64,000 nt of DNA from Deltaproteobacteria bacterium. Its GTDB lineage: Bacteria; Desulfobacterota; Binatia; DP-6. Below are positions 193 to 41,630 of this stretch, in pieces. A program made the translations under genes and the position numbers. The DNA lies in the NCBI GenBank assembly GCA_005888095.1, contig VBKF01000103.1:35845-99844 (forward strand), written 5' to 3'. The first letter of the stretch is position 1; each line of letters opens with the position of its first letter. The notes under the pieces were generated by a model. That model was not told where the DNA came from and ran no database searches. It worked only from the letters and a program-made list of their open reading frames with translations.

Positions 193-3100
193 ATGCACTG
201 CCCGTCCTGCGGACACGACCTGCGGCCCGGGGCGCGCTTCTGCGACGCGTGCGGTCATCCCGTCGGCGGGGTCGCGCCGCCCGAGCGTCGCCCCCACGCA
301 CCGGCCCACCTCGCCGAGAAGATCCTCGCGTCGCGGGGCCGGCTCGAGGGCGAGCGCAAGCACGTGACGGTGCTCTTCGCGGACGTGAAGGGGTCGATGG
401 AGCTCGCGGAGCGGGTCGATCCCGAGGCGTGGCACCGCATCCTCGACCGCTTCTTCGCGATCCTCGCCGACGGGGTGCACCGGTTCGAAGGCACCGTCAA
501 CCAGTTCACGGGCGACGGCATCATGGCGCTCTTCGGCGCACCGCTCGCGCACGAGGATCATGCACGGCGGGCCTGCGCCGCCGCGCTCCACCTCGGCGCG
601 GAGATCCGGCTCTACGCGCGCGATCTCCGCCTCGCCGAGGGACTGAACTTCTCCGTCCGCATGGGCCTCAACTCGGGCGAGGTCGTGGTGGGCACGATCG
701 GCGACGACCTGCACATGGACTACACCGCGCTCGGCGCGACCGTGGGTCTGGCGCAGCGCATGGAGCAGCTCGCCGAGCCCGGCAAGGTCTACCTGACCGA
801 GCACACGGCACGGCTGGTGGAAGGGTTCTTTCGCCTCGAGGAGCTCGGGCGGTTCAGCGTGAAAGGCCTGCGCGACCGGGTCCGGGTCTACGAGCTCGAG
901 GGCCCCGGCCCGCTCAAGACCCGCCTCGACGTCTCCCGCGCACGCGGCCTCTCCCGCTTCGTCGGACGCGTGGAGGAGACGGCGGCGCTGGAGGCCGCAC
1001 TCCGCCGGGCGGTGGAGGGACGCGGCGGGGTCGTGGGCATCGTCGCCGAGGCCGGAGTCGGCAAGAGCCGGCTCTGCTACGAGTTCATCGAGCGAACCCG
1101 CGCGCGCGGTCTCACGGCCCACCAGGCGCACTGCGTCGCCCACGGGAGGATGGTTCCCTTCCTCCCGATTCTCGAGCTCCTGCGCGGGTACTTCGGCATC
1201 TCCGAGCAGGATGGCAACGAGGCAGGCCGCCGGAAGATCGCCGGCACGGTGCTCTTGCTCGACCCGGAGCTCACCGAATCGCTCCCGCTCCTCTTCGACT
1301 TCCTCGGCGTGCCGGACCCCGAGCGCCGGGCTCAGCGCATGGACCCCGAGGCGCGCCAGCGCCGGCTCTGTGCGCTGTTCACGCGGCTGGTCCAGGCGCG
1401 GAGCCGCCGGGAGCCGAGCGTGCTCCTGGTCGAGGATCTCCACTGGGTGGACGGCGGCAGCGAGGTGTTCCTGGCGGAGCTCGTCGCGGCGCTGCCGGAG
1501 ACCGCCGCGCTGCTCCTCGTGACCCTCCGCCCGGAGTACCGGGCCGGCTGGTTCGGGACGTCCTCGTACCAGCAGCTGACGCTCGCACCGCTCGTCGCCG
1601 AGGCGAGCGCCGCCCTGCTCCAGGACCTGCTCGGCTCCAATCCGTCGCTCGCCGGGGTCGTCGGGCCCGTCCGCGAGCGCACCGCCGGAAATCCCTTCTT
1701 CATCGAGGAGGTCGTCCAGGCGCTGGTCGAGGGCGGGAGCCTCGTCGGGACGAAGGGCGCGTACCGGCTGGTCAAGCCGGTCGCCGAGCTCGTCGTCCCG
1801 CCCACGGTGCACGCGGTGCTCGCCGCGCGCATCGACCGGCTGCCCGAACGTGAGAAGGACATCCTGCAGACTGCCGCCGTCATCGGGAAGGAGTTCACGG
1901 AGCGGGTGCTGAGAGCGGTGAGTGAGCTTCCCGAGGCCGACGTCGGGGCGGCCCTCGCGACGCTCACGCAGGCCGAGTTCATCTACGAGGAACCCGTCCA
2001 TCCCGAGATCGAGTACAGCTTCAAGCACCCGCTGACCCACGAGGTGGCGTACCGCTCCCAGCTGGGCGAGCGGCGCGCCTCGACGCACGCGGCGGCGGCG
2101 CGGGCGATCGCCGAGCTCTACGCGGACAAGCTCGACGAGCGCGCGGCGCTCCTCGCCCACCACTGGGAAGCGGCCGGCGAGAGCCTCGAAGCGGCGCGCT
2201 GGAGCCGCCGAGCCGCCGAGTGGGCGGGGGTCAGCGACCTCGCCGAGGCCGCGGCCCAGTGGCGGAAGGTGCGCGAGCTGCTCGCCACGGTCCCCGACTC
2301 TGCGGAGCGGCTGGAGATGGGCGTGCAGGCGGACATCGCGCTCCTGGGCCTCGGCTGGCGGTTCGGCATCGCGGAGGACGAAGCCGCGGCGATCTTTGCG
2401 GAAGGCGTGGCCCTCGCCCGGCAGACGCACGATCCTGGCGCGCTTTCGACGCTCCTCAACACGTACGGCATGGTCCGGGGGATGTCCGGGCACGTCGCCG
2501 AGGCCGTGGAGCGCACGCGGGAGGGGACGCGTCTGGCGGACGAGACCAACGACGCGGGCCGGCAGCTCGGCTCGCGCGTCGCGCTCGTCGAGGCCCAGTA
2601 CATGGCGGGAGACCTGCGCGGCGCACTCGAGACGCTCGGGGAGGCGCGCGCGTACGCCGCCGAGGCGCCGAGCGGCGCCCGGATTCGAACCGGCTTCAGC
2701 CCCTCCAACTGGATGGTCATGATGAGCGGATGGCTCCTCTTCGACACCGGTCATCCCGAGGAGGCCGCGCGCGAGCTCGAGCGCGCCCGCTCGCTCGCAC
2801 GCGAGCATGGCGAGACCGAGCTCCTCGGCTGGGCGCACGAGCTCAGCGCGCACGTGGCGGCGTTCAGAGGAGACTCGGACGGGGCGCTCGATCACGCCCG
2901 CCAGGCGTTCGACATCGCCGAGCGAATCGGGAGCTCGTTCTCGCGGACGTCGGCATACGACGCGCTCGGCTGCGTGCACCTCGCGAACCAGGGTTGGGCG
3001 TCGGCCGCGAGCGCGTTCGAGCAGGCCCTCTCCATCGTCCGGGAGCGAGGGATCGGGCTCCACTGGGAGCCCCGCATCCTCGCCGAGCTCGCCGAGGCGC

Positions 3101-3435
3101 AGCTCGGAGGCGGAGACGTCGAGAAGGCGCGGGCCACGGCCGAGGATGCCGTGCGGCGGGTCCGCGCTCTCTCGACGAAGGTGACCGAGTGCCGTGCACT
3201 CCTGACCTTCGCCCGGGTTCTGCTGCGGAGCGAGGGAGCCGGGGCGCGCGGTCCGGTGGAGGCCGCGCTCGGCCGGACGCTCGCGCTGGTCGCGGAAACC
3301 GGCGCCGGCCTCTACGAGCCCCAGATTCGTCTCGAGCTGGCGGAGCTCGCGCGCCTCACGGGCGACGAGGATGCGCGCCGGCGCGAGCTCTCCGAAGCGC
3401 GGCGCCTGCTCGGCGCAATGGGGTGTTTGGCCTAG
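193..3435 (+). CDS. multidomain signalling protein: N-terminal zinc ribbon, class III adenylate/guanylate cyclase domain, AAA/STAND ATPase (AAA_16-like), C-terminal TPR-like repeats
   Basis: The 1080-aa ORF begins CPSCGhdlrpgarFCDACG, a zinc-ribbon pattern. It then has cyclase-homology motifs (VTVLFADVKGS, FTGDGIMALFGAP) and a Walker A motif (GIVAEAGVGKSRL). The C-terminal 400 aa are Ala/Leu/Arg-rich and helical, consistent with TPR repeats. Confidence 0.8.
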   Translation: MHCPSCGHDLRPGARFCDACGHPVGGVAPPERRPHAPAHLAEKILASRGRLEGERKHVTVLFADVKGSMELAERVDPEAWHRILDRFFAILADGVHRFEGTVNQFTGDGIMALFGAPLAHEDHARRACAAALHLGAEIRLYARDLRLAEGLNFSVRMGLNSGEVVVGTIGDDLHMDYTALGATVGLAQRMEQLAEPGKVYLTEHTARLVEGFFRLEELGRFSVKGLRDRVRVYELEGPGPLKTRLDVSRARGLSRFVGRVEETAALEAALRRAVEGRGGVVGIVAEAGVGKSRLCYEFIERTRARGLTAHQAHCVAHGRMVPFLPILELLRGYFGISEQDGNEAGRRKIAGTVLLLDPELTESLPLLFDFLGVPDPERRAQRMDPEARQRRLCALFTRLVQARSRREPSVLLVEDLHWVDGGSEVFLAELVAALPETAALLLVTLRPEYRAGWFGTSSYQQLTLAPLVAEASAALLQDLLGSNPSLAGVVGPVRERTAGNPFFIEEVVQALVEGGSLVGTKGAYRLVKPVAELVVPPTVHAVLAARIDRLPEREKDILQTAAVIGKEFTERVLRAVSELPEADVGAALATLTQAEFIYEEPVHPEIEYSFKHPLTHEVAYRSQLGERRASTHAAAARAIAELYADKLDERAALLAHHWEAAGESLEAARWSRRAAEWAGVSDLAEAAAQWRKVRELLATVPDSAERLEMGVQADIALLGLGWRFGIAEDEAAAIFAEGVALARQTHDPGALSTLLNTYGMVRGMSGHVAEAVERTREGTRLADETNDAGRQLGSRVALVEAQYMAGDLRGALETLGEARAYAAEAPSGARIRTGFSPSNWMVMMSGWLLFDTGHPEEAARELERARSLAREHGETELLGWAHELSAHVAAFRGDSDGALDHARQAFDIAERIGSSFSRTSAYDALGCVHLANQGWASAASAFEQALSIVRERGIGLHWEPRILAELAEAQLGGGDVEKARATAEDAVRRVRALSTKVTECRALLTFARVLLRSEGAGARGPVEAALGRTLALVAETGAGLYEPQIRLELAELARLTGDEDARRRELSEARRLLGAMGCLA

Positions 3436-4721
3436 AACACGTCGCCCAGGCGGATCGTCTGCTCGCGCTGCGGGCCGACCGACAGCAAGACGACCGGCGT
3501 GCCGACCAGCGCCGACAGTCGGTCGAGGTAGCGACGCGCGTTCGGCGGCAGGTCGGCGAGCGCACGCACCGCACCCAGGCTCTCCCGCCACCCCGCCAGC
3601 TCCTCGTAGAGCGGCACGACCCGCTCCCAGCCCCTCTGCGTCGCGGGCGGAAAGTCCCGGCGCCGGCCGTCGAGCTCGTAGGCGACGCAGACCCGCAGCG
3701 GGTCGATGCCGGTCAGCACATCGAGCTTGGTGAGGGCGAGACCGTCGACACCGGAGAGCGCGGTCGCGTGGCGCACCACGACCGCGTCGAACCAGCCGCA
3801 GCGACGCGGGCGGCCCGTGGTGGCGCCGTACTCGTCGCCGTCGGCGCGCAGCCGATCGCCGAGCGCATCGGCGAGCTCGGTCGGGAAGGGGCCCGAGCCG
3901 ACGCGCGTCGTGTAGGCCTTGGCGATGCCGACGATCCGTCCGATGGCGCGGGGCGGCACGCCCGCACCGGCCGAGGCGCCTCCGGCCAGCGTGCTGGAAG
4001 AGGTCACGAACGGGTACGTCCCGTGGTCGACGTCGAGGAGCGCGCCCTGGGCGCCCTCGAGGAGCACGCGCCGGCCGGCGGCGAGCGCGGCACGGAGCTC
4101 GGCCGTCGTGTCGGCGACGAAGGGCCGCAGCCGCTCGCGGTAGCCCCGGTAGCGGTCGTGGATGTCGTCGAAGGCGAGCGGCGGCTCGCCGAGGAGCGCC
4201 TGCAGGTACCCGTTCTTCTCGCGCAGGTTGCGCTCGAGCGCGTCGCGGAACCCGGGCTCGTCGAACAGCTCGCCGACGCGGATGCCCGTCCGCGCCATCT
4301 TGTCCTCGTAGGCGGGGCCGATGCCGCGGCCCGTCGTGCCGATGTTCCCGGGGCCGCGGAGGCGCTCGCGCGCCCGGTCGATGGCCCGGTGGTAGGGCAT
4401 GATGAGATGCGCCTGCTCGCTGATGCGCAGCCACCGGTCGTCGCTGAGGTAGCCGCGGCGGCGGAGCGCGTCGATCTCGCCGACCAGCACCTCGGGATCG
4501 ATCACCATGCCCGGTCCCATCACGCAGATGCGGCCGGGGTGGAGCACACCCGCGGGGATCAGGTTGAGGATCGTCTTCTCGCCGTCGACCACCAGGGTGT
4601 GTCCGGCATTGTTGCCGCCGTGGAAGCGGACGACGACGTCGGCGTCCGCCGCCAGGAGGTCGACGATCTTTCCCTTCCCCTCGTCACCCCACTGGGTGCC
4701 CGTGACGACCGCGGCAGGCAC
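3432..4721 (-). CDS. purA: adenylosuccinate synthetase
   Basis: N-terminus VVTGTQWGDEGKGKIVD and GGNNAGHT are PurA signatures. The stop overlaps the upstream gene by 4 nt. Confidence 0.95.
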   Translation of the reverse strand: MPAAVVTGTQWGDEGKGKIVDLLAADADVVVRFHGGNNAGHTLVVDGEKTILNLIPAGVLHPGRICVMGPGMVIDPEVLVGEIDALRRRGYLSDDRWLRISEQAHLIMPYHRAIDRARERLRGPGNIGTTGRGIGPAYEDKMARTGIRVGELFDEPGFRDALERNLREKNGYLQALLGEPPLAFDDIHDRYRGYRERLRPFVADTTAELRAALAAGRRVLLEGAQGALLDVDHGTYPFVTSSSTLAGGASAGAGVPPRAIGRIVGIAKAYTTRVGSGPFPTELADALGDRLRADGDEYGATTGRPRRCGWFDAVVVRHATALSGVDGLALTKLDVLTGIDPLRVCVAYELDGRRRDFPPATQRGWERVVPLYEELAGWRESLGAVRALADLPPNARRYLDRLSALVGTPVVLLSVGPQREQTIRLGDVF

Positions 4722-30242: not shown

Positions 30243-31051
30243 GTCGCCTCCGCGACGCGGCGCCCGGTCTCGAGCCCCGCCGGGGCGGGGAGATGCTCGA
30301 GCATGAAGCTCCGTACGCGCCGGATGAGCTCGTCGCGGTCCACACCCGCCGCCGGGATCGGACGGCCCACGACGACCTCGATGTCGCCCGCGGCCACCCG
30401 CCAGGCGCGTCTCGGCAGGACCTTGTCGCTGTCACGCACGACCATGGGGACGATCGGGACTCCGGTGTCGAGCGCCATCATGAAGCCGCCCTTCTTGAAC
30501 CGCAAAAGCGTGTCGCGGGGCGTGGCACGGGTACCCTCGGGGAAGATCATGACCGAGATGCCCTCGCGCATCCGCAGCTCGGCCGCACGCAGGCTCCGGA
30601 CCGCCTGCGTGCTGTCGCTCCGGTCGATGATGATGTGGCCGGATCGCCTGAGCGCCCAGCCGAACACCGGGACGCGCGTCAGCTCGACCTTGGCCACCCA
30701 GCGGAGCTGGTACTCCGGCAGCGCAGCGATCACCGCGAGGACGTCGAACTGGCTGCGGTGGTTCGACATGAAGACGTAGGGCGTCTGCGGGTCGAGCGGG
30801 GCGAGCCGCCGCGTTCGCACGCGCACGCCGCAGGCCAGGAGGTTGATCCGGACCCAGAGCCGGCAGAGTCGATACGCTGCCCGCTCGTCGAACAGGGCGA
30901 CGGCGACCACGCTCAGCGCACAGACGACCGTGTTGAGCCCGACGCAGATCAGCTTGAGGATCGAAACCAGGATCACGACCCGTTTCTCACCCCGCCGCCG
31001 CGAACCCCTCCCGGCCTGGATCGCCGCCGCAACTAGCGTACATCCGAACAT
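30239..31051 (-). CDS. plsC: 1-acyl-sn-glycerol-3-phosphate acyltransferase
   Basis: N-terminal TM helix, acyltransferase NHxxxxD motif (FMSNHRSQFDVLA) and PEGTR motif. The exact start (ATG 31051 or an internal GTG) is uncertain. Confidence 0.75.
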   Translation of the reverse strand: MFGCTLVAAAIQAGRGSRRRGEKRVVILVSILKLICVGLNTVVCALSVVAVALFDERAAYRLCRLWVRINLLACGVRVRTRRLAPLDPQTPYVFMSNHRSQFDVLAVIAALPEYQLRWVAKVELTRVPVFGWALRRSGHIIIDRSDSTQAVRSLRAAELRMREGISVMIFPEGTRATPRDTLLRFKKGGFMMALDTGVPIVPMVVRDSDKVLPRRAWRVAAGDIEVVVGRPIPAAGVDRDELIRRVRSFMLEHLPAPAGLETGRRVAEAT

Positions 31052-31111
31052 ACCGGGGCGCAGCCGCGCAAGTCAACGTGGAGAAGGAGCGCTGTGTGCG
31101 CGGCTTGCCGT

Positions 31112-31131
31112 GGTAGCTTCCGGAAGCTACC
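31112..31131. promoter_or_regulatory. 20-bp perfect palindrome GGTAGCTTCC|GGAAGCTACC, 8 nt upstream of the antitoxin start; putative autoregulatory operator over the promoter
   Basis: Read directly from the sequence. It overlaps a candidate -35/-10 (TTGCCG ... TACCGT). Type II toxin-antitoxin operons are typically autorepressed through palindromic operators. Confidence 0.5.
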
Positions 31132-31139
31132 GTGGGCAC

Positions 31140-31433
31140 ATGCGCGCGGTCGGGCTGAAGGTGCTCAAAAACAAGCTGAGCGAGTACGTACGCCTCGCTG
31201 CCCGGGGGGAGACCGTGCTGGTCACGGACCGCGACCGGGTGGTGGCCGAGCTGGGTCCGCCGCGAGAGGGCCGGGCCCCGAGGCTCGCCGACGCCCAGCT
31301 CGCCGAGATGATGCGGAAGGGGATCCTCGCCCCGCCACTCGTGTCGCGCGAGACCCCATTGCCTCCCCGGAAGCCGATCGCGCCTCTCGCCGAGCTCCTG
31401 CGCGAGCTCGACCAGGATCGCGCGGACCGGTGA
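31140..31433 (+). CDS. vapB: type II antitoxin (Phd/YefM or VapB-like) paired with a PIN toxin
   Basis: 97 aa; MRAVGLKVLKNKLSEYVRLAARGETVLVTDRDRVVAEL is the typical antitoxin N-terminal fold. Its stop overlaps the vapC GTG start. Confidence 0.75.
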   Translation: MRAVGLKVLKNKLSEYVRLAARGETVLVTDRDRVVAELGPPREGRAPRLADAQLAEMMRKGILAPPLVSRETPLPPRKPIAPLAELLRELDQDRADR

Positions 31434-31813
31434 TCTACGTCGACACCTCCGTGGTGCTGGCGGAGCTTCTCGCCGAGGATCGCTCGCCACCGGCGCGGCT
31501 CTGGGAGTCCGACCTCGTGTCGAGCCGACTGCTCGAGTACGAGCTCTGGACCCGGGTGCACGCGCGTAAGCTGACGTCCACCCACGGCGACGCGGCGCGC
31601 GCGATCGTGGCGAGGATCGCGTTGCTCGACCTCTCGCCGCTCGTCCTCGGACGGGCGCTCGACCCGTTTCCCGTCGCGGTCCGCACGCTCGACGCCTTCC
31701 ATCTGGCGTCGATGGACTATCTCCGAGGGGGCGGTCAAACCGTCGTGCTCGCAAGCTATGACGACCGTCTCGTCCGCGCCGCCAGCGCGCTCGACTTCCC
31801 GCTCTTCGAGTGA
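31430..31813 (+). CDS. vapC: PIN-domain ribonuclease toxin
   Basis: 127 aa; IYVDTSVV (first acidic residue), internal ...LDAFHLAS and ...SYDD acidic residues of a PIN fold. GTG start overlaps the antitoxin TGA. Confidence 0.8.
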   Translation: MIYVDTSVVLAELLAEDRSPPARLWESDLVSSRLLEYELWTRVHARKLTSTHGDAARAIVARIALLDLSPLVLGRALDPFPVAVRTLDAFHLASMDYLRGGGQTVVLASYDDRLVRAASALDFPLFE

Positions 31814-31937
31814 GAGGGGGGCGGCGGCACGTGGCGTCCGACGTTCGGACAGCGCCACACTCGACCAACAATTGCGAGCGCCACGTTGACTTCGCCCGCC
31901 GCGCGCGACTATCGTCCGCGACGGGGAGGACGCGGTC

Positions 31938-32348
31938 ATGTCGGTGAACCGAGTGATGCTGATCGGCAACCTGGGGAAGGATCCCGAGGTGCGCTTCACA
32001 CCGAGTGGACGCGCGGTCGCGCGCTTCCCGCTCGCCACGAGCGAGGTGTGGAACGACCAGGAGGGCCAGCGCCAGGAGCGGACGGACTGGCACAACGTGG
32101 TCGTCTGGGGAAAGCAGGCCGAGTCCTGCGGCCAGTACCTCGCCAAGGGCCGCCAGGTCTACGTCGAGGGGTCGATCCGCACCCGCCAGTACGACGACAA
32201 GGACGGCAACCGCCGCTACATCACCGAGATCATCGCGCAGCGGGTGCAGTTCCTCGGCGGCGGGCGCGGAGCCGACACGCCGCGCGGGCTTCCCGAGGAG
32301 CCGCCCCCCGGTCCGCCGAGCGCCACCGACGACGACGTCCCGTTCTGA
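31938..32348 (+). CDS. ssb: single-stranded DNA-binding protein
   Basis: 136 aa; OB-fold start [21 protein letters not shown], a Gly/Pro linker and an acidic tip DDDVPF. Confidence 0.95.
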
Positions 32349-32363: not shown

Positions 32364-33392
32364 TCAGTCCGCCAGCCAGCGCACGGGCTTGCCGTGGAAG
32401 CCCGAGATCGCGATCAGGCGATCCTCGCCCGCGGGCCACGTCTTGAGCCGCACCTCCGCCCCCTCCGCGCCGGGCTCCATGCGCAGCCAGGCGAGCGGCG
32501 CATCCCGGGTGGCGCGCCGTCCCGCCTCCTCCACCTCCCCGACGAAGCGCTCCCGCTCGTCATCGGCCAGGTACTGCATGAAGATCGAGTGGAACACGAC
32601 CGACGCCACGGCGTGGACGGGACGCTGGAGCGCGGCCGCCGTCCAGCCCGCGGCGCTCGCCGCCTCGATCACGACCGGCACGCGTCGCGCCAGGGCGATC
32701 GCGCCGCGCAGCAGGGCGATACGCTCGAGCTGGTCCGCCCACACGTAGGACAGGAGCGTGCGCTCTCCTTCGGGCGACGCGGGATCGATCGGATGCCGGT
32801 CGCAGCCGCGGCGCGTCGCGATCCGGATGGGAACGTCGAGGGGAGGAAGCCGCGCCTCGAACGTCTCGACGAGCCGTACGGGCGAGTCGGGATCGCCCCA
32901 CGCCGTTCCACGGCATTCGTAGCGGTAGAGGTCCCAGCGCAGATTGAGTCCGGCGCTCGCTCCGACCTCGAGCAGCCGCAGGGGGAGTCCGGTTCGGGCG
33001 ACGAGGAGGAAGCCGCCGAGCAGCGCGGACGACCTGCCAACCTCGTTGGTCTGGACCGGGCGCTCGAGGAGCATCCCGAGCGCACGAGCGTGCCGCTCCA
33101 CCGCCGTCCGGAAGACCGGCCAGGCGGCCTCGGCGTCGGCACGGCCTCCGACCGACGGGTAATAGGGTGCCAGCTCCGGCACCTGGCCCTCCAGCACGAG
33201 CCGGTGCATGGAGCCCATCAGCCGGAGCGCCAGCGCCGAGCCCGGCGAATCGGACTCGTGGCCACGGAGCAGCTCCCGGACCGGGCCGCCGGCCGCCACG
33301 TCCGTGGCCGCATGCTCGAGCAGCCGCGCGTACAGCGGCGAGCCCAGCCGATCACACCAGCCCGCCTGCAGGCGAAGGAGGTCGGCTACCAC
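32364..33392 (-). CDS. DUF2332-family protein (uncharacterised)
   Basis: About 342 aa; resembles the DUF2332 family (recalled, not searched). GTG start preceded by GGAGG. Overlaps the radC 3' end by 7 nt. Confidence 0.6.
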   Translation of the reverse strand: MVADLLRLQAGWCDRLGSPLYARLLEHAATDVAAGGPVRELLRGHESDSPGSALALRLMGSMHRLVLEGQVPELAPYYPSVGGRADAEAAWPVFRTAVERHARALGMLLERPVQTNEVGRSSALLGGFLLVARTGLPLRLLEVGASAGLNLRWDLYRYECRGTAWGDPDSPVRLVETFEARLPPLDVPIRIATRRGCDRHPIDPASPEGERTLLSYVWADQLERIALLRGAIALARRVPVVIEAASAAGWTAAALQRPVHAVASVVFHSIFMQYLADDERERFVGEVEEAGRRATRDAPLAWLRMEPGAEGAEVRLKTWPAGEDRLIAISGFHGKPVRWLAD

Positions 33393-34084
33393 CGCCCCTC
33401 CTCGGCCATGCTCGTGTAGCGTCCCCGGCCGATCACCACGTGGTCGAGCACCCGGATGCCGACGAGCTCCCCCACCTGCCGCAGACGCTGGGTGATGGCA
33501 GCGTCCTCGGCCGACGGCGTGGGATCGCCGCTCGGGTGATTGTGGACCAGGATGAGCGCCGCGGCGGCGGCACGGATGGCGGGGCAGAAGACCTCGCGCG
33601 GATGGACGAGGGCCGCGGTCAGCGATCCCTCCGAGACGTGCACCTCCGCCTGGACGCGGTTCTTGCCGTCGAGGAGGAGGACGTAGAACACCTCGCGTTC
33701 GAGCTGCGGGAGGCGCCCGCGGAAGTGGCCGTAGACCGCCGCCGCGTCGCGCACCGGGCCGCCGGCGGTGAGCGGCAGGGCCGCGCCCCGCCGGCCGAGC
33801 TCGAGCGCCGCGCGCACCAGCGCGGCCCGTCTCGGCCAGAGGCCGCCGAGCGCGGCGTACGCGGCGCGATCGAGACGGTCGAGCCGCTCGACCCCGCCCG
33901 CGGCGCCGATCATCCGCTCCGCGAGCGACACGGCGGCCGGCGTCGCCGCGCCGCCGTCGAGCACGAGGCCGAGGAGCTCCGCGTCCGAGCACGCGGACGC
34001 GCCGGCCGCGAGGACTCGCTCGCGCACGCCGAGCAGCCGCAGCCGGCGCCCGGTCGGCGCCGCGGAGTCGGAGACGGTGTCCAC
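33386..34084 (-). CDS. radC: DNA repair protein RadC (JAB/MPN domain)
   Basis: HNHPSGDPTPSAEDAAIT is the JAMM motif, with an N-terminal HhH region. Confidence 0.9.
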   Translation of the reverse strand: MDTVSDSAAPTGRRLRLLGVRERVLAAGASACSDAELLGLVLDGGAATPAAVSLAERMIGAAGGVERLDRLDRAAYAALGGLWPRRAALVRAALELGRRGAALPLTAGGPVRDAAAVYGHFRGRLPQLEREVFYVLLLDGKNRVQAEVHVSEGSLTAALVHPREVFCPAIRAAAAALILVHNHPSGDPTPSAEDAAITQRLRQVGELVGIRVLDHVVIGRGRYTSMAEEGRW

Positions 34085-40308: not shown

Positions 40309-41630
40309 CGGTTGCCTCCTCTCACGGCGGCGAGCCGCCGCTCGACGGCTCGCCCGTGCGCGTCGAGGCCCTCGAGCCGAGCGAGCCGCACGACCGGCGG
40401 CCCGAGGGTGGCGAGCGTGCGCGGGCCGGCCCCGATGACGCTCGTCCGCTTGACGAAGTCGTAGACGCCGAGCGGGGAGGCGAAGCGCGCCGTCCCGCCC
40501 GTCGGCAGCACGTGATTCGGGCCGGCGAGATAGTCGCCGAGCGCCTCGGGCGCGTCCTGCCCGAGGAACACGGCGCCCGCGTGGCGCACCCCGGCCGCCA
40601 CCGGCCCCGGATCGCGCACCGCGAGCTCGAGGTGCTCGGGGGCGAGCCGGTTCGCGATCTCGACCGCCTCGGCCACCGAGCGCGTGACGACGATCGCCCC
40701 GAAGGCCGCGAGCGCGCGCTCGGCGATGGCACGCCGCGGAAGCGTGGCGAGCTGCGCCGCGAGGGCCGCGGCGACCCGGGCGGCAAGCCGGCGGTCCGTG
40801 GTCAGGCAGACCGCCGCCGCGAGCGGGTCGTGCTCGGCCTGGGCGAGCATGTCGGCCGCCACCAGCTCCGGGTCGGCCGAGCGGTCGGCCACGATCACCA
40901 CCTCGCTCGGGCCGGCAATCGCATCGATGGCGACGTGCCCGTAGCAGAGCCGCTTCGCGGTCGCGACGTAGATGTTGCCCGGACCGACGATCTTGTCGAC
41001 GCGCGGCACGGTCTCGGTGCCGAACGCGAGCGCCGCGATGGCCTGGGCTCCGCCCAGGCGATAGAGCCGGTCGACGCCAGCCACGTGGCAGGCCGCCAGA
41101 ATGAGGGGATTGTCGAGAGGGTGGTCGCCGCCCTTCTGCGCCGGGGTGACCGCGATCACCTCCCGGACGCCGGCGACCCGGGCGGTGACCACGGTCATCA
41201 GGACCGTCGACGGATAGACCGCGCGGCCGCCCGGGATGTAGACGCCGACCCGCGCGAGCGGCTCGATGCGCTGGCCGAGCCGCGCGCCGGTCGCGTCGCG
41301 GAAGGACCAGGAGCGCTCGCGCTGGCGCGCGTGGAAGGCGCGGATGCGGCGCGCGGCGAGCGCGAGATCGCGGCGTACGCTCGGCGGCTGCTTCCGATAG
41401 GCCCGCGCCAGCGCGCCGTCGGGCACACGCAGCTCGCCCCGCCGGAGCGAGACGCCGTCGAACCGCCGGGTGAATGCCAGGAGCGCGCGGTCGCCGCGCC
41501 GCCGCACGGCCTCGATGATGCGGCGGACGTCCGCCTCCACCCTGGCACCCGCCGCCTCCCCGCGCCGCTCCAGGCGCGCGAGGCGCCGCCGCGCGGCGGC
41601 GCTGCCCGAGGTGCAGACGAGGTCGGTCAC
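40305..41630 (-). CDS. hisD: histidinol dehydrogenase
   Basis: 441 aa; [14 protein letters not shown]...QAEHD...[11 protein letters not shown] motifs. 4-nt overlaps on both sides. Confidence 0.9.

Follow-up and report, generated by a model that had tools for sequence, protein, structure and literature searches.

Type II toxin–antitoxin (TA) operons classically carry an operator that overlaps their promoter and serves autorepression, as reviewed in PMC4803016. In phage P1 Phd-Doc as well as in YefM-YoeB and Axe-Txe, palindromic operators are located within the promoter, and negative autoregulation is exerted by the antitoxin or by the TA complex (PMC4803016). For VapBC46 (Rv3385c/Rv3384c) of Mycobacterium tuberculosis, the account given in PMC11160731, with reference to Roy et al. 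(2019, FEBS J 286:1174), is that the VapB46–VapC46 complex binds its own promoter DNA in electrophoretic mobility shift assays. In M. tuberculosis, TA transcripts are moreover predominantly leaderless, and the −10 consensus is TANNNT (PMC3898074, PMC8485053). Here, we analyzed a module located between plsC and ssb in a stretch of 64,000 nucleotides (hereafter the window; 73% GC) of contig VBKF01000103.1 from a Deltaproteobacteria bacterium, in which an earlier note, made from the sequence alone, had described a vapBC gene pair preceded by a perfect 20-bp palindrome. By its PIN profile, acidic quartet, predicted fold and operon layout, this module belongs among the VapBC-type type II TA systems. 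Taken together, our results make it highly probable that it represents a horizontally acquired, self-contained cassette in which a Phd/YefM-type antitoxin is paired with a PIN (VapC)-type toxin.

In agreement with the earlier assignment of the second gene to the PIN-domain toxins, the toxin sequence matched the Pfam family PIN (PF01850) over residues 2-118 with 32.2 bits, compared to a gathering score of 23.6. The acidic quartet expected of such a protein is intact (D5/E38/D88/D111): in 24 close homologues, E38 and D111 never vary while conservation of D5 and D88 is at least 90%, and among 60 diverse homologues D111 is invariant and D5, E38 and D88 are each at least 90% conserved. The family is large and its members are unusually alike, with 2,244 homologous matches, of which those with 63-73% identity were found in Rokubacteria, Gemmatimonadota, Nitrococcus, Alphaproteobacteria and Acidobacteria, and with 2,508 representatives at E <= 0.001 in a library clustered at 50% identity. 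An AlphaFold (AF2) model of the toxin was obtained from a 60-sequence alignment that included representatives of the 50% clusters and that replaced the alignment of 24 homologues; it reached a predicted local distance difference test score (pLDDT) of 97.1 and a predicted template modelling score (pTM) of 0.90. The earlier model, based on the 24 close homologues, had a pLDDT of 72, and its fold search was non-significant with PIN proteins heading the list. Using the newer model, the six best Foldseek matches in the PDB were all VapC/PIN toxins (VapC20, PAE0151 and 4xgr), with E-values of 2.5e-4 to 8.5e-4 and template modelling (TM) scores of 0.64-0.70, and further matches comprised VapCs of Klebsiella, Shigella, the F plasmid, Haemophilus, Rickettsia, Salmonella and Caulobacter (probability ~1.0, TM 0.6-0.7). 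These results indicate that the toxin, as modelled, has a PIN/VapC fold, in line with its public annotation as a 'type II toxin-antitoxin system VapC family toxin'. The NCBI record TMB44576.1 (window 31358-31813) gives the toxin as a protein of 151 aa whose N-terminus is extended into the antitoxin gene; the 127-aa form starting with GTG at 31430 agrees with all homologues.

For the antitoxin, Phd/YefM, RHH and AbrB types had been named as candidates, and the available matches point to the first of these. Residues 1-42 matched the N-terminal half of PF02604 (PhdYeFM_antitox) with 25.7 bits (E 9.7e-6), and TIGR01552 scored 18.5 bits (cut-off 20.8, E 9e-4). PF02604 was matched by 24 of 24 aligned antitoxin homologues (best E 1.9e-7), and most database homologues carry a precomputed PF02604 assignment. 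The sole solved sequence relative was the N-terminal domain of M. tuberculosis VapB46 (6jqy; E 2e-4 with the single sequence and 5.5e-6 with a profile), with VapB5 as a faint second match in the PDB. The antitoxin is thus probably of the Phd/YefM type, its own score being sub-threshold, and it is publicly annotated as a 'prevent-host-death protein'. Its C-terminal half (RLADAQLAE..R.GW...ELD.DR.DR) is conserved within the family and, by analogy, would be the toxin-binding part. The label 'vapBC' given to the pair is fair, and can be made more precise as a Phd/YefM-antitoxin and PIN-toxin pair of the VapB46/VapC46 type.

To place the module in its genomic context, we made use of two sets of related loci. 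A metagenome scan with PlsC provided 23 more distant relatives of the host locus (PlsC 57-70%, RNase J 73-83% and SSB 70-92% identical), and a scan with the antitoxin across one genome per species provided 80 cassette loci. The latter are distributed over more than 10 phyla, including Gemmatimonadota, Acidobacteriota, Rokubacteria/Methylomirabilota, Binatia, Alpha-, Beta-, Gamma- and Deltaproteobacteria/Myxococcota, Planctomycetota, Actinomycetota and Latescibacterota. In 21 of the 23 relatives of the host, plsC and ssb are divergent and ~130-230 bp apart, with no TA module between them; one of the remaining two (L118) carries a different insert, and in the other (L122) the sequence breaks off before ssb is reached. 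When the window was aligned locally to the plsC-ssb intergenic regions of L104, L106, L113, L103 and L105, both junctions could be placed within a few nucleotides: host homology stops at 31076-31078, just after the minus-strand plsC −35, and resumes at 31866, just before the ssb −35. About 17 nt occupy the place of the 789-bp segment in the TA-less relatives, and this segment is made up of 28 nt, the promoter-operator, the two genes and 52 nt including a hairpin. Since plsC and ssb are direct neighbours in relatives of the host, these alignments identify the segment as having been inserted between the divergent promoters of the two genes, which settles the question raised in the earlier note of whether the module had been inserted.

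The cassette also appears elsewhere in other company. Its closest copies, with 80-90% protein identity and the palindrome kept as GGTAGCTTCCGGGAGCTACCGT, are found in unrelated contexts, namely after dapF-dapA-dapB, before a glycosyltransferase gene and beside an MNT/HepT pair, and plsC, ssb or RNase J were near the cassette in none of the 80 genome loci. Elsewhere in the window, neither the cassette nor the operator core was found a second time. Inspection of the junctions by eye revealed no target-site duplication or terminal repeats, and an intergenic similarity of L123 to both window junctions (GCGCGGCTT / CGACGTTC) was discarded as too short to trust.

This mobility bears on what the module has been selected for. 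With the same parts, the selected role could be anti-phage abortive infection or the stabilisation of mobile elements instead of growth control of the host under stress, a proposal that concerns role and not mechanism and that is compatible with the explanation favoured here. It would be in keeping with a mobile cassette that is present in very many phyla and whose closest copies occupy unrelated contexts, one of them beside MNT/HepT; yet no PADLOC defence model matches either protein, and no phage, integrase or transposase genes were found near the cassette at the window locus. We regard such a role as possible, albeit doubtful.

As separate observations on these loci, the 82%-identical cassette copy of the P0005 contig (JGI 3300056388) directly adjoins the MNT/HepT (nucleotidyltransferase/HEPN) TA pair, a neighbourhood which suggests that TA modules cluster. 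The different insert of L118 (PlsC 57% identical) measures 1.5 kb, is located at the same plsC-ssb site (2500-4000) and contains a 451-aa open reading frame (ORF) on the minus strand; the gap between the two divergent promoters may be permissive for insertions.

The palindrome GGTAGCTTCCGGAAGCTACC occurs once in the window, even when 3 mismatches are allowed. Alignment of 81 upstream regions on the right arm of the palindrome yielded the family consensus TTGACA - 1 to 3 nt - (A/G)GTAGCT(T/A)C(C/T)(G/A)G(A/T)AGCTAC(C/T)TT - 5 to 8 nt - ATG. Within the core GTAGC..C..G..GCTAC, every position is conserved in at least 70 of the 81 regions and most positions in at least 79; the first-position T of the −35 is kept in 78, and the T, A and final T of the −10 in 79, 81 and 74, respectively, and no conservation was observed upstream of the −35. 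The family −10 is formed by the final three bases of the palindrome right arm together with three more, at 17 nt from the −35, and the GTAGC-N8-GCTAC core occupies the whole spacer between the TTGACA −35 and the TACCTT −10. The promoter TTGCCG-N17-TACCGT previously proposed for the window fits this TTGACA-N17-TACCTT consensus. In 567 kb of family loci, the motif TAGC-N8-GCTA was encountered 64 times, 63 of these at the 5' end of the antitoxin gene and the 64th (L081:169) in front of a second, decayed copy of the cassette, so that all 64 occurrences precede a family antitoxin gene.

Because the same core is present at the same position in related cassettes from more than 10 phyla, the palindrome is very probably the binding site of the antitoxin. 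It fills the spacer and overlaps the −10, and would therefore be positioned to exclude RNA polymerase when bound. The autorepressed type II TA operon pictured in the earlier note is in this way supported by a site between −35 and −10 that is conserved in the 81 upstream regions and, within the 567 kb of family loci, exclusive to the family.

Conceivably, the palindrome could instead be an element of the promoter or the target of a host factor and not the operator of the antitoxin, given that the −10 is located in its right arm and that its left arm abuts the −35. Covariation between the arms is weak: two symmetric position pairs exceed the Watson-Crick symmetry of shuffled columns (outer p = 0.001, inner p = 0.03), a signal that is confounded by the relatedness of the loci. 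Promoter spacers are, however, normally unconserved, whereas in these loci conservation and 2-fold symmetry extend to nearly every position of the spacer. It is unlikely that one host factor would be common to Gemmatimonadota, Acidobacteriota, Proteobacteria, Planctomycetota, Actinomycetota and others, and the sole protein that always accompanies the site is the putative Phd/YefM-type DNA-binding antitoxin. We hence consider a promoter or host-factor element very unlikely, and retain the palindrome as the candidate operator of the antitoxin.

The distance between the −10 end and the antitoxin start codon is 6 nt in the window and 5-8 nt in all 81 upstream regions. With the −10 so near the ATG, transcription is expected to start at or beside its A, which leaves no room for a Shine-Dalgarno sequence, and we infer that the TA mRNA is leaderless. 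The toxin gene follows the antitoxin gene in 77 of the 80 loci, nearly always with the same overlap, which in the window reads GTGA (31430-31433; GTG start and TGA stop). Since the toxin GTG overlaps the antitoxin stop, the toxin is likely to be produced by way of translational coupling.

Compared to copies that are 80-90% identical, both genes show purifying selection, with ratios of nonsynonymous to synonymous substitution rates (dN/dS) of 0.09-0.17 for the toxin and of 0.12 for the antitoxin. These values bear on whether the module might have decayed into an inactive state and lost its function as a TA pair, for which there is precedent: decayed copies of the family exist, such as the second one in L081, and many chromosomal VapCs are non-toxic when tested, VapC27 being an example (PMC11160731). 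The window copy has nonetheless retained full-length ORFs, intact catalytic residues and a perfect palindrome; it shows the low dN/dS values given above, and 20 contigs from different samples carry an identical locus. An inactive remnant is thus highly improbable. In the decayed L081 cassette itself (167-750, in a Bryobacterales genome), an operator-like AGTAGCTTCCAGTTGCTACT is present, the antitoxin ORF is truncated to 64 aa (187-381), and remnants of the toxin N- and C-terminus are fused in one ORF. The 20 contigs (L001-L020) from varied soil metagenomes, and two assemblies of metagenome-assembled genomes labelled 'Deltaproteobacteria bacterium', are base-for-base identical to the window over 31040-31940 (900 bp); the host population appears to be widespread and nearly clonal.

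Several observations weigh against a working cassette with an autoregulatory operator. Sequence searches of the PDB with the toxin returned no match, either with the single sequence or with a 24-sequence profile, and the toxin was without an NCBIfam match. The PF02604 score of the antitoxin is below the gathering score of 29.8 and covers the first 42 residues only. In a generic sigma-70 promoter scan, the TA promoter went uncalled owing to the weak match of both hexamers in the window copy, and conservation of the right arm could be due in part to the −10 instead of protein binding. Moreover, first-order Markov simulations of the 64-kb window predicted 0.63 perfect 20-bp palindromes per 64 kb by chance, with at least one in 49% of simulations. 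A second perfect 20-bp palindrome, GCGCCGCCGCGCGGCGGCGC (41583-41602), is indeed present; it consists only of G and C and probably arose by chance at the composition of the window. The perfection of the palindrome alone is therefore no evidence, and it is conservation that carries its significance. Although a chance or generic GC-rich repeat without specific function, with the TA genes regulated otherwise, is thus to be expected at a rate of ~0.6 per window, this reading is effectively refuted by a core that recurs at the same distance to the start codon in 80 loci, representing more than 10 phyla, amid unconserved sequence upstream of the −35, by its uniqueness in the window, and by the position of every motif occurrence in front of an antitoxin gene.

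Overall, these results suggest a model in which a dimer of the antitoxin, alone or more tightly as TA complex, would bind the palindrome via its N-terminal domain and thereby cover the spacer and the −10, excluding RNA polymerase in a negative autoregulatory loop. When transcribed, the leaderless mRNA would start at or beside the A of the ATG, and the toxin would be translated by coupling across GTGA. The C-terminal half of the antitoxin would wrap the toxin and block its Mg2+-dependent active site. Upon loss of the antitoxin, for example by proteolysis or blocked synthesis, the freed PIN toxin would cleave a specific RNA, leading to a stop of translation and growth. In characterised VapCs, the RNA target is a tRNA or a loop of 23S rRNA.

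At the downstream end of the cassette, the earlier note had pointed to a GC-rich hairpin between vapC and the ssb promoter-like site. Such a hairpin, GTGGCG...CGCCAC, does form in the predicted minimum free energy (MFE) fold and is located inside the inserted segment. Its stability, however, was not significant compared to shuffled sequence (z = -0.59 and +0.25), it lacks a T-run, no terminator was called at this site, and the regions 3' of 76 family toxins showed no excess structure (mean z -0.04). We accordingly rejected the hairpin as a terminator or as a conserved part of the cassette. A search of 30900-32100 against Rfam found no RNA family at E <= 1. As the hairpin cannot be called a terminator, read-through from the cassette into ssb is possible; the cassette is co-directional with ssb and lies 52 nt upstream of the ssb promoter region.

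A broader and more speculative proposal builds on this arrangement. The cassette might be a phylum-independent 'plug-and-play' unit, characterized by a near-consensus −35, a minimal TANNNT-type −10 within the operator and a leaderless start, the last of which would dispense with host-specific Shine-Dalgarno pairing; in the window, transcription of the TA operon derepressed under stress might read through into ssb, and the supply of SSB would then be coupled to activation of the module. If true, this design would explain why proteins of 60-77% identity and an almost invariant 18-bp control site are encountered across more than 10 phyla. We put it forward as an unlikely extension of the horizontally acquired, self-contained cassette.

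The features of the locus are collected in Table 1. When the sequence was re-read, the palindrome, both ORFs and their overlap, the promoter hexamers, the hairpin and the ssb site were all found where the earlier note had placed them, and the neighbours proved to be those it had named: the minus strand encodes RNase J and a PlsC-type acyltransferase, the plus strand SSB.

Table 1. Features of the TA cassette and of the adjoining host sequence, in window coordinates
Feature	Position	Strand	Basis or remark
Inserted segment with the whole cassette	31077..31865		789 bp; alignments to TA-less relatives
−35 hexamer TTGCCG (family consensus TTGACA)	31105..31110	+	column conservation in 81 upstream regions
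Perfect 20-bp palindrome GGTAGCTTCCGGAAGCTACC, inferred operator	31112..31131		unique in window; core conserved across loci
−10 hexamer TACCGT (family consensus TACCTT, TANNNT type)	31128..31133	+	17 nt after −35
Antitoxin gene, 97 aa + stop = 98 codons	31140..31433	+	probable Phd/YefM-type, DNA-binding N-terminal domain, residues 1-42
Toxin gene, 127 aa, GTG start, PIN/VapC-type ribonuclease (predicted)	31430..31813	+	PF01850, acidic quartet, model
GC-rich hairpin GTGGCG (31832-31837) / CGCCAC (31853-31858), inner TCCGA/TCGGA stem	31832..31858	+	MFE fold
plsC promoter-like site TTGACT-N18-TATGTT, host sequence directly left of insertion	31047..31076	-	also kept in TA-less relatives
ssb promoter-like site TTGACT-N18-TATCGT, host sequence right of insertion	31886..31915	+	kept as CGTTGACTTCG...CTATCGTC in TA-less relatives

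The spacer between the palindrome and the antitoxin ATG is 8 nt (31132-31139). On the plsC side, the longest ORF (270 aa) opens at ATG 31051, and public gene calls start plsC near 30976 (245 aa); because 31047-31076 is a conserved minus-strand promoter-like site, the 270-aa ORF is probably over-extended through a mis-assigned start. Located 3' of ssb on the minus strand (32364-34084) are genes for a DUF2332 protein and a RadC-like (UPF0758) protein, whose order is kept in all near-identical contigs.

As a module, the pair is ordinary, one more chromosomal VapBC-like pair of which both proteins were already publicly annotated. New here are the cross-phylum conservation of a promoter, operator and predicted leaderless start as a unit, and the boundaries of the insertion at nucleotide level. 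The analysis thereby offers an operator hypothesis, TTGACA-aGGTAGCTTCCRGAAGCTACCTT-N6-ATG, for a large, uncharacterised Phd-PIN subfamily common in soil bacteria, together with a clean case of a TA cassette that has entered the gap separating two divergent housekeeping promoters.

Compared to known systems, the toxin is closest in structure to the solved VapCs, namely M. tuberculosis VapC20 (5wz4/5wzf, sarcin-ricin-loop cleaving), Pyrobaculum PAE0151 (2fe1), a mycobacterial 4xgr chain and VapC of Shigella, Salmonella and Rickettsia, with which it has in common the predicted fold (Foldseek probability 1.00, TM 0.64-0.72) and the acidic quartet. Sequence identity to these is, however, 12-22% and their RNA target is not transferable; moreover, their antitoxins are mostly of AbrB or RHH type, in contrast to the probable Phd/YefM type here. 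Phd-Doc of phage P1 and YefM-YoeB / Axe-Txe, in turn, are related through the antitoxin, which probably belongs to the same DNA-binding fold family (PF02604, TIGR01552), whereas their toxins, a Fic-type kinase and RelE-type RNases, are unrelated to the PIN toxin. The operators differ as well: those of Phd and YefM consist of two adjacent sites, and the candidate operator here is one palindrome of 18-20 bp built around a GTAGC/GCTAC core. VapBC46 differs from the window module in host and phylum, and the detectable similarity of the antitoxins is restricted to the first ~40 residues. VapBC46, and more generally VapBC pairs in which VapB carries an N-terminal domain of Phd/YefM type, are likewise close to the module: its antitoxin N-terminus aligns with VapB46 (6jqy) over 40 residues, its toxin is a PIN domain, and its antitoxin gene comes first and overlaps the toxin gene.

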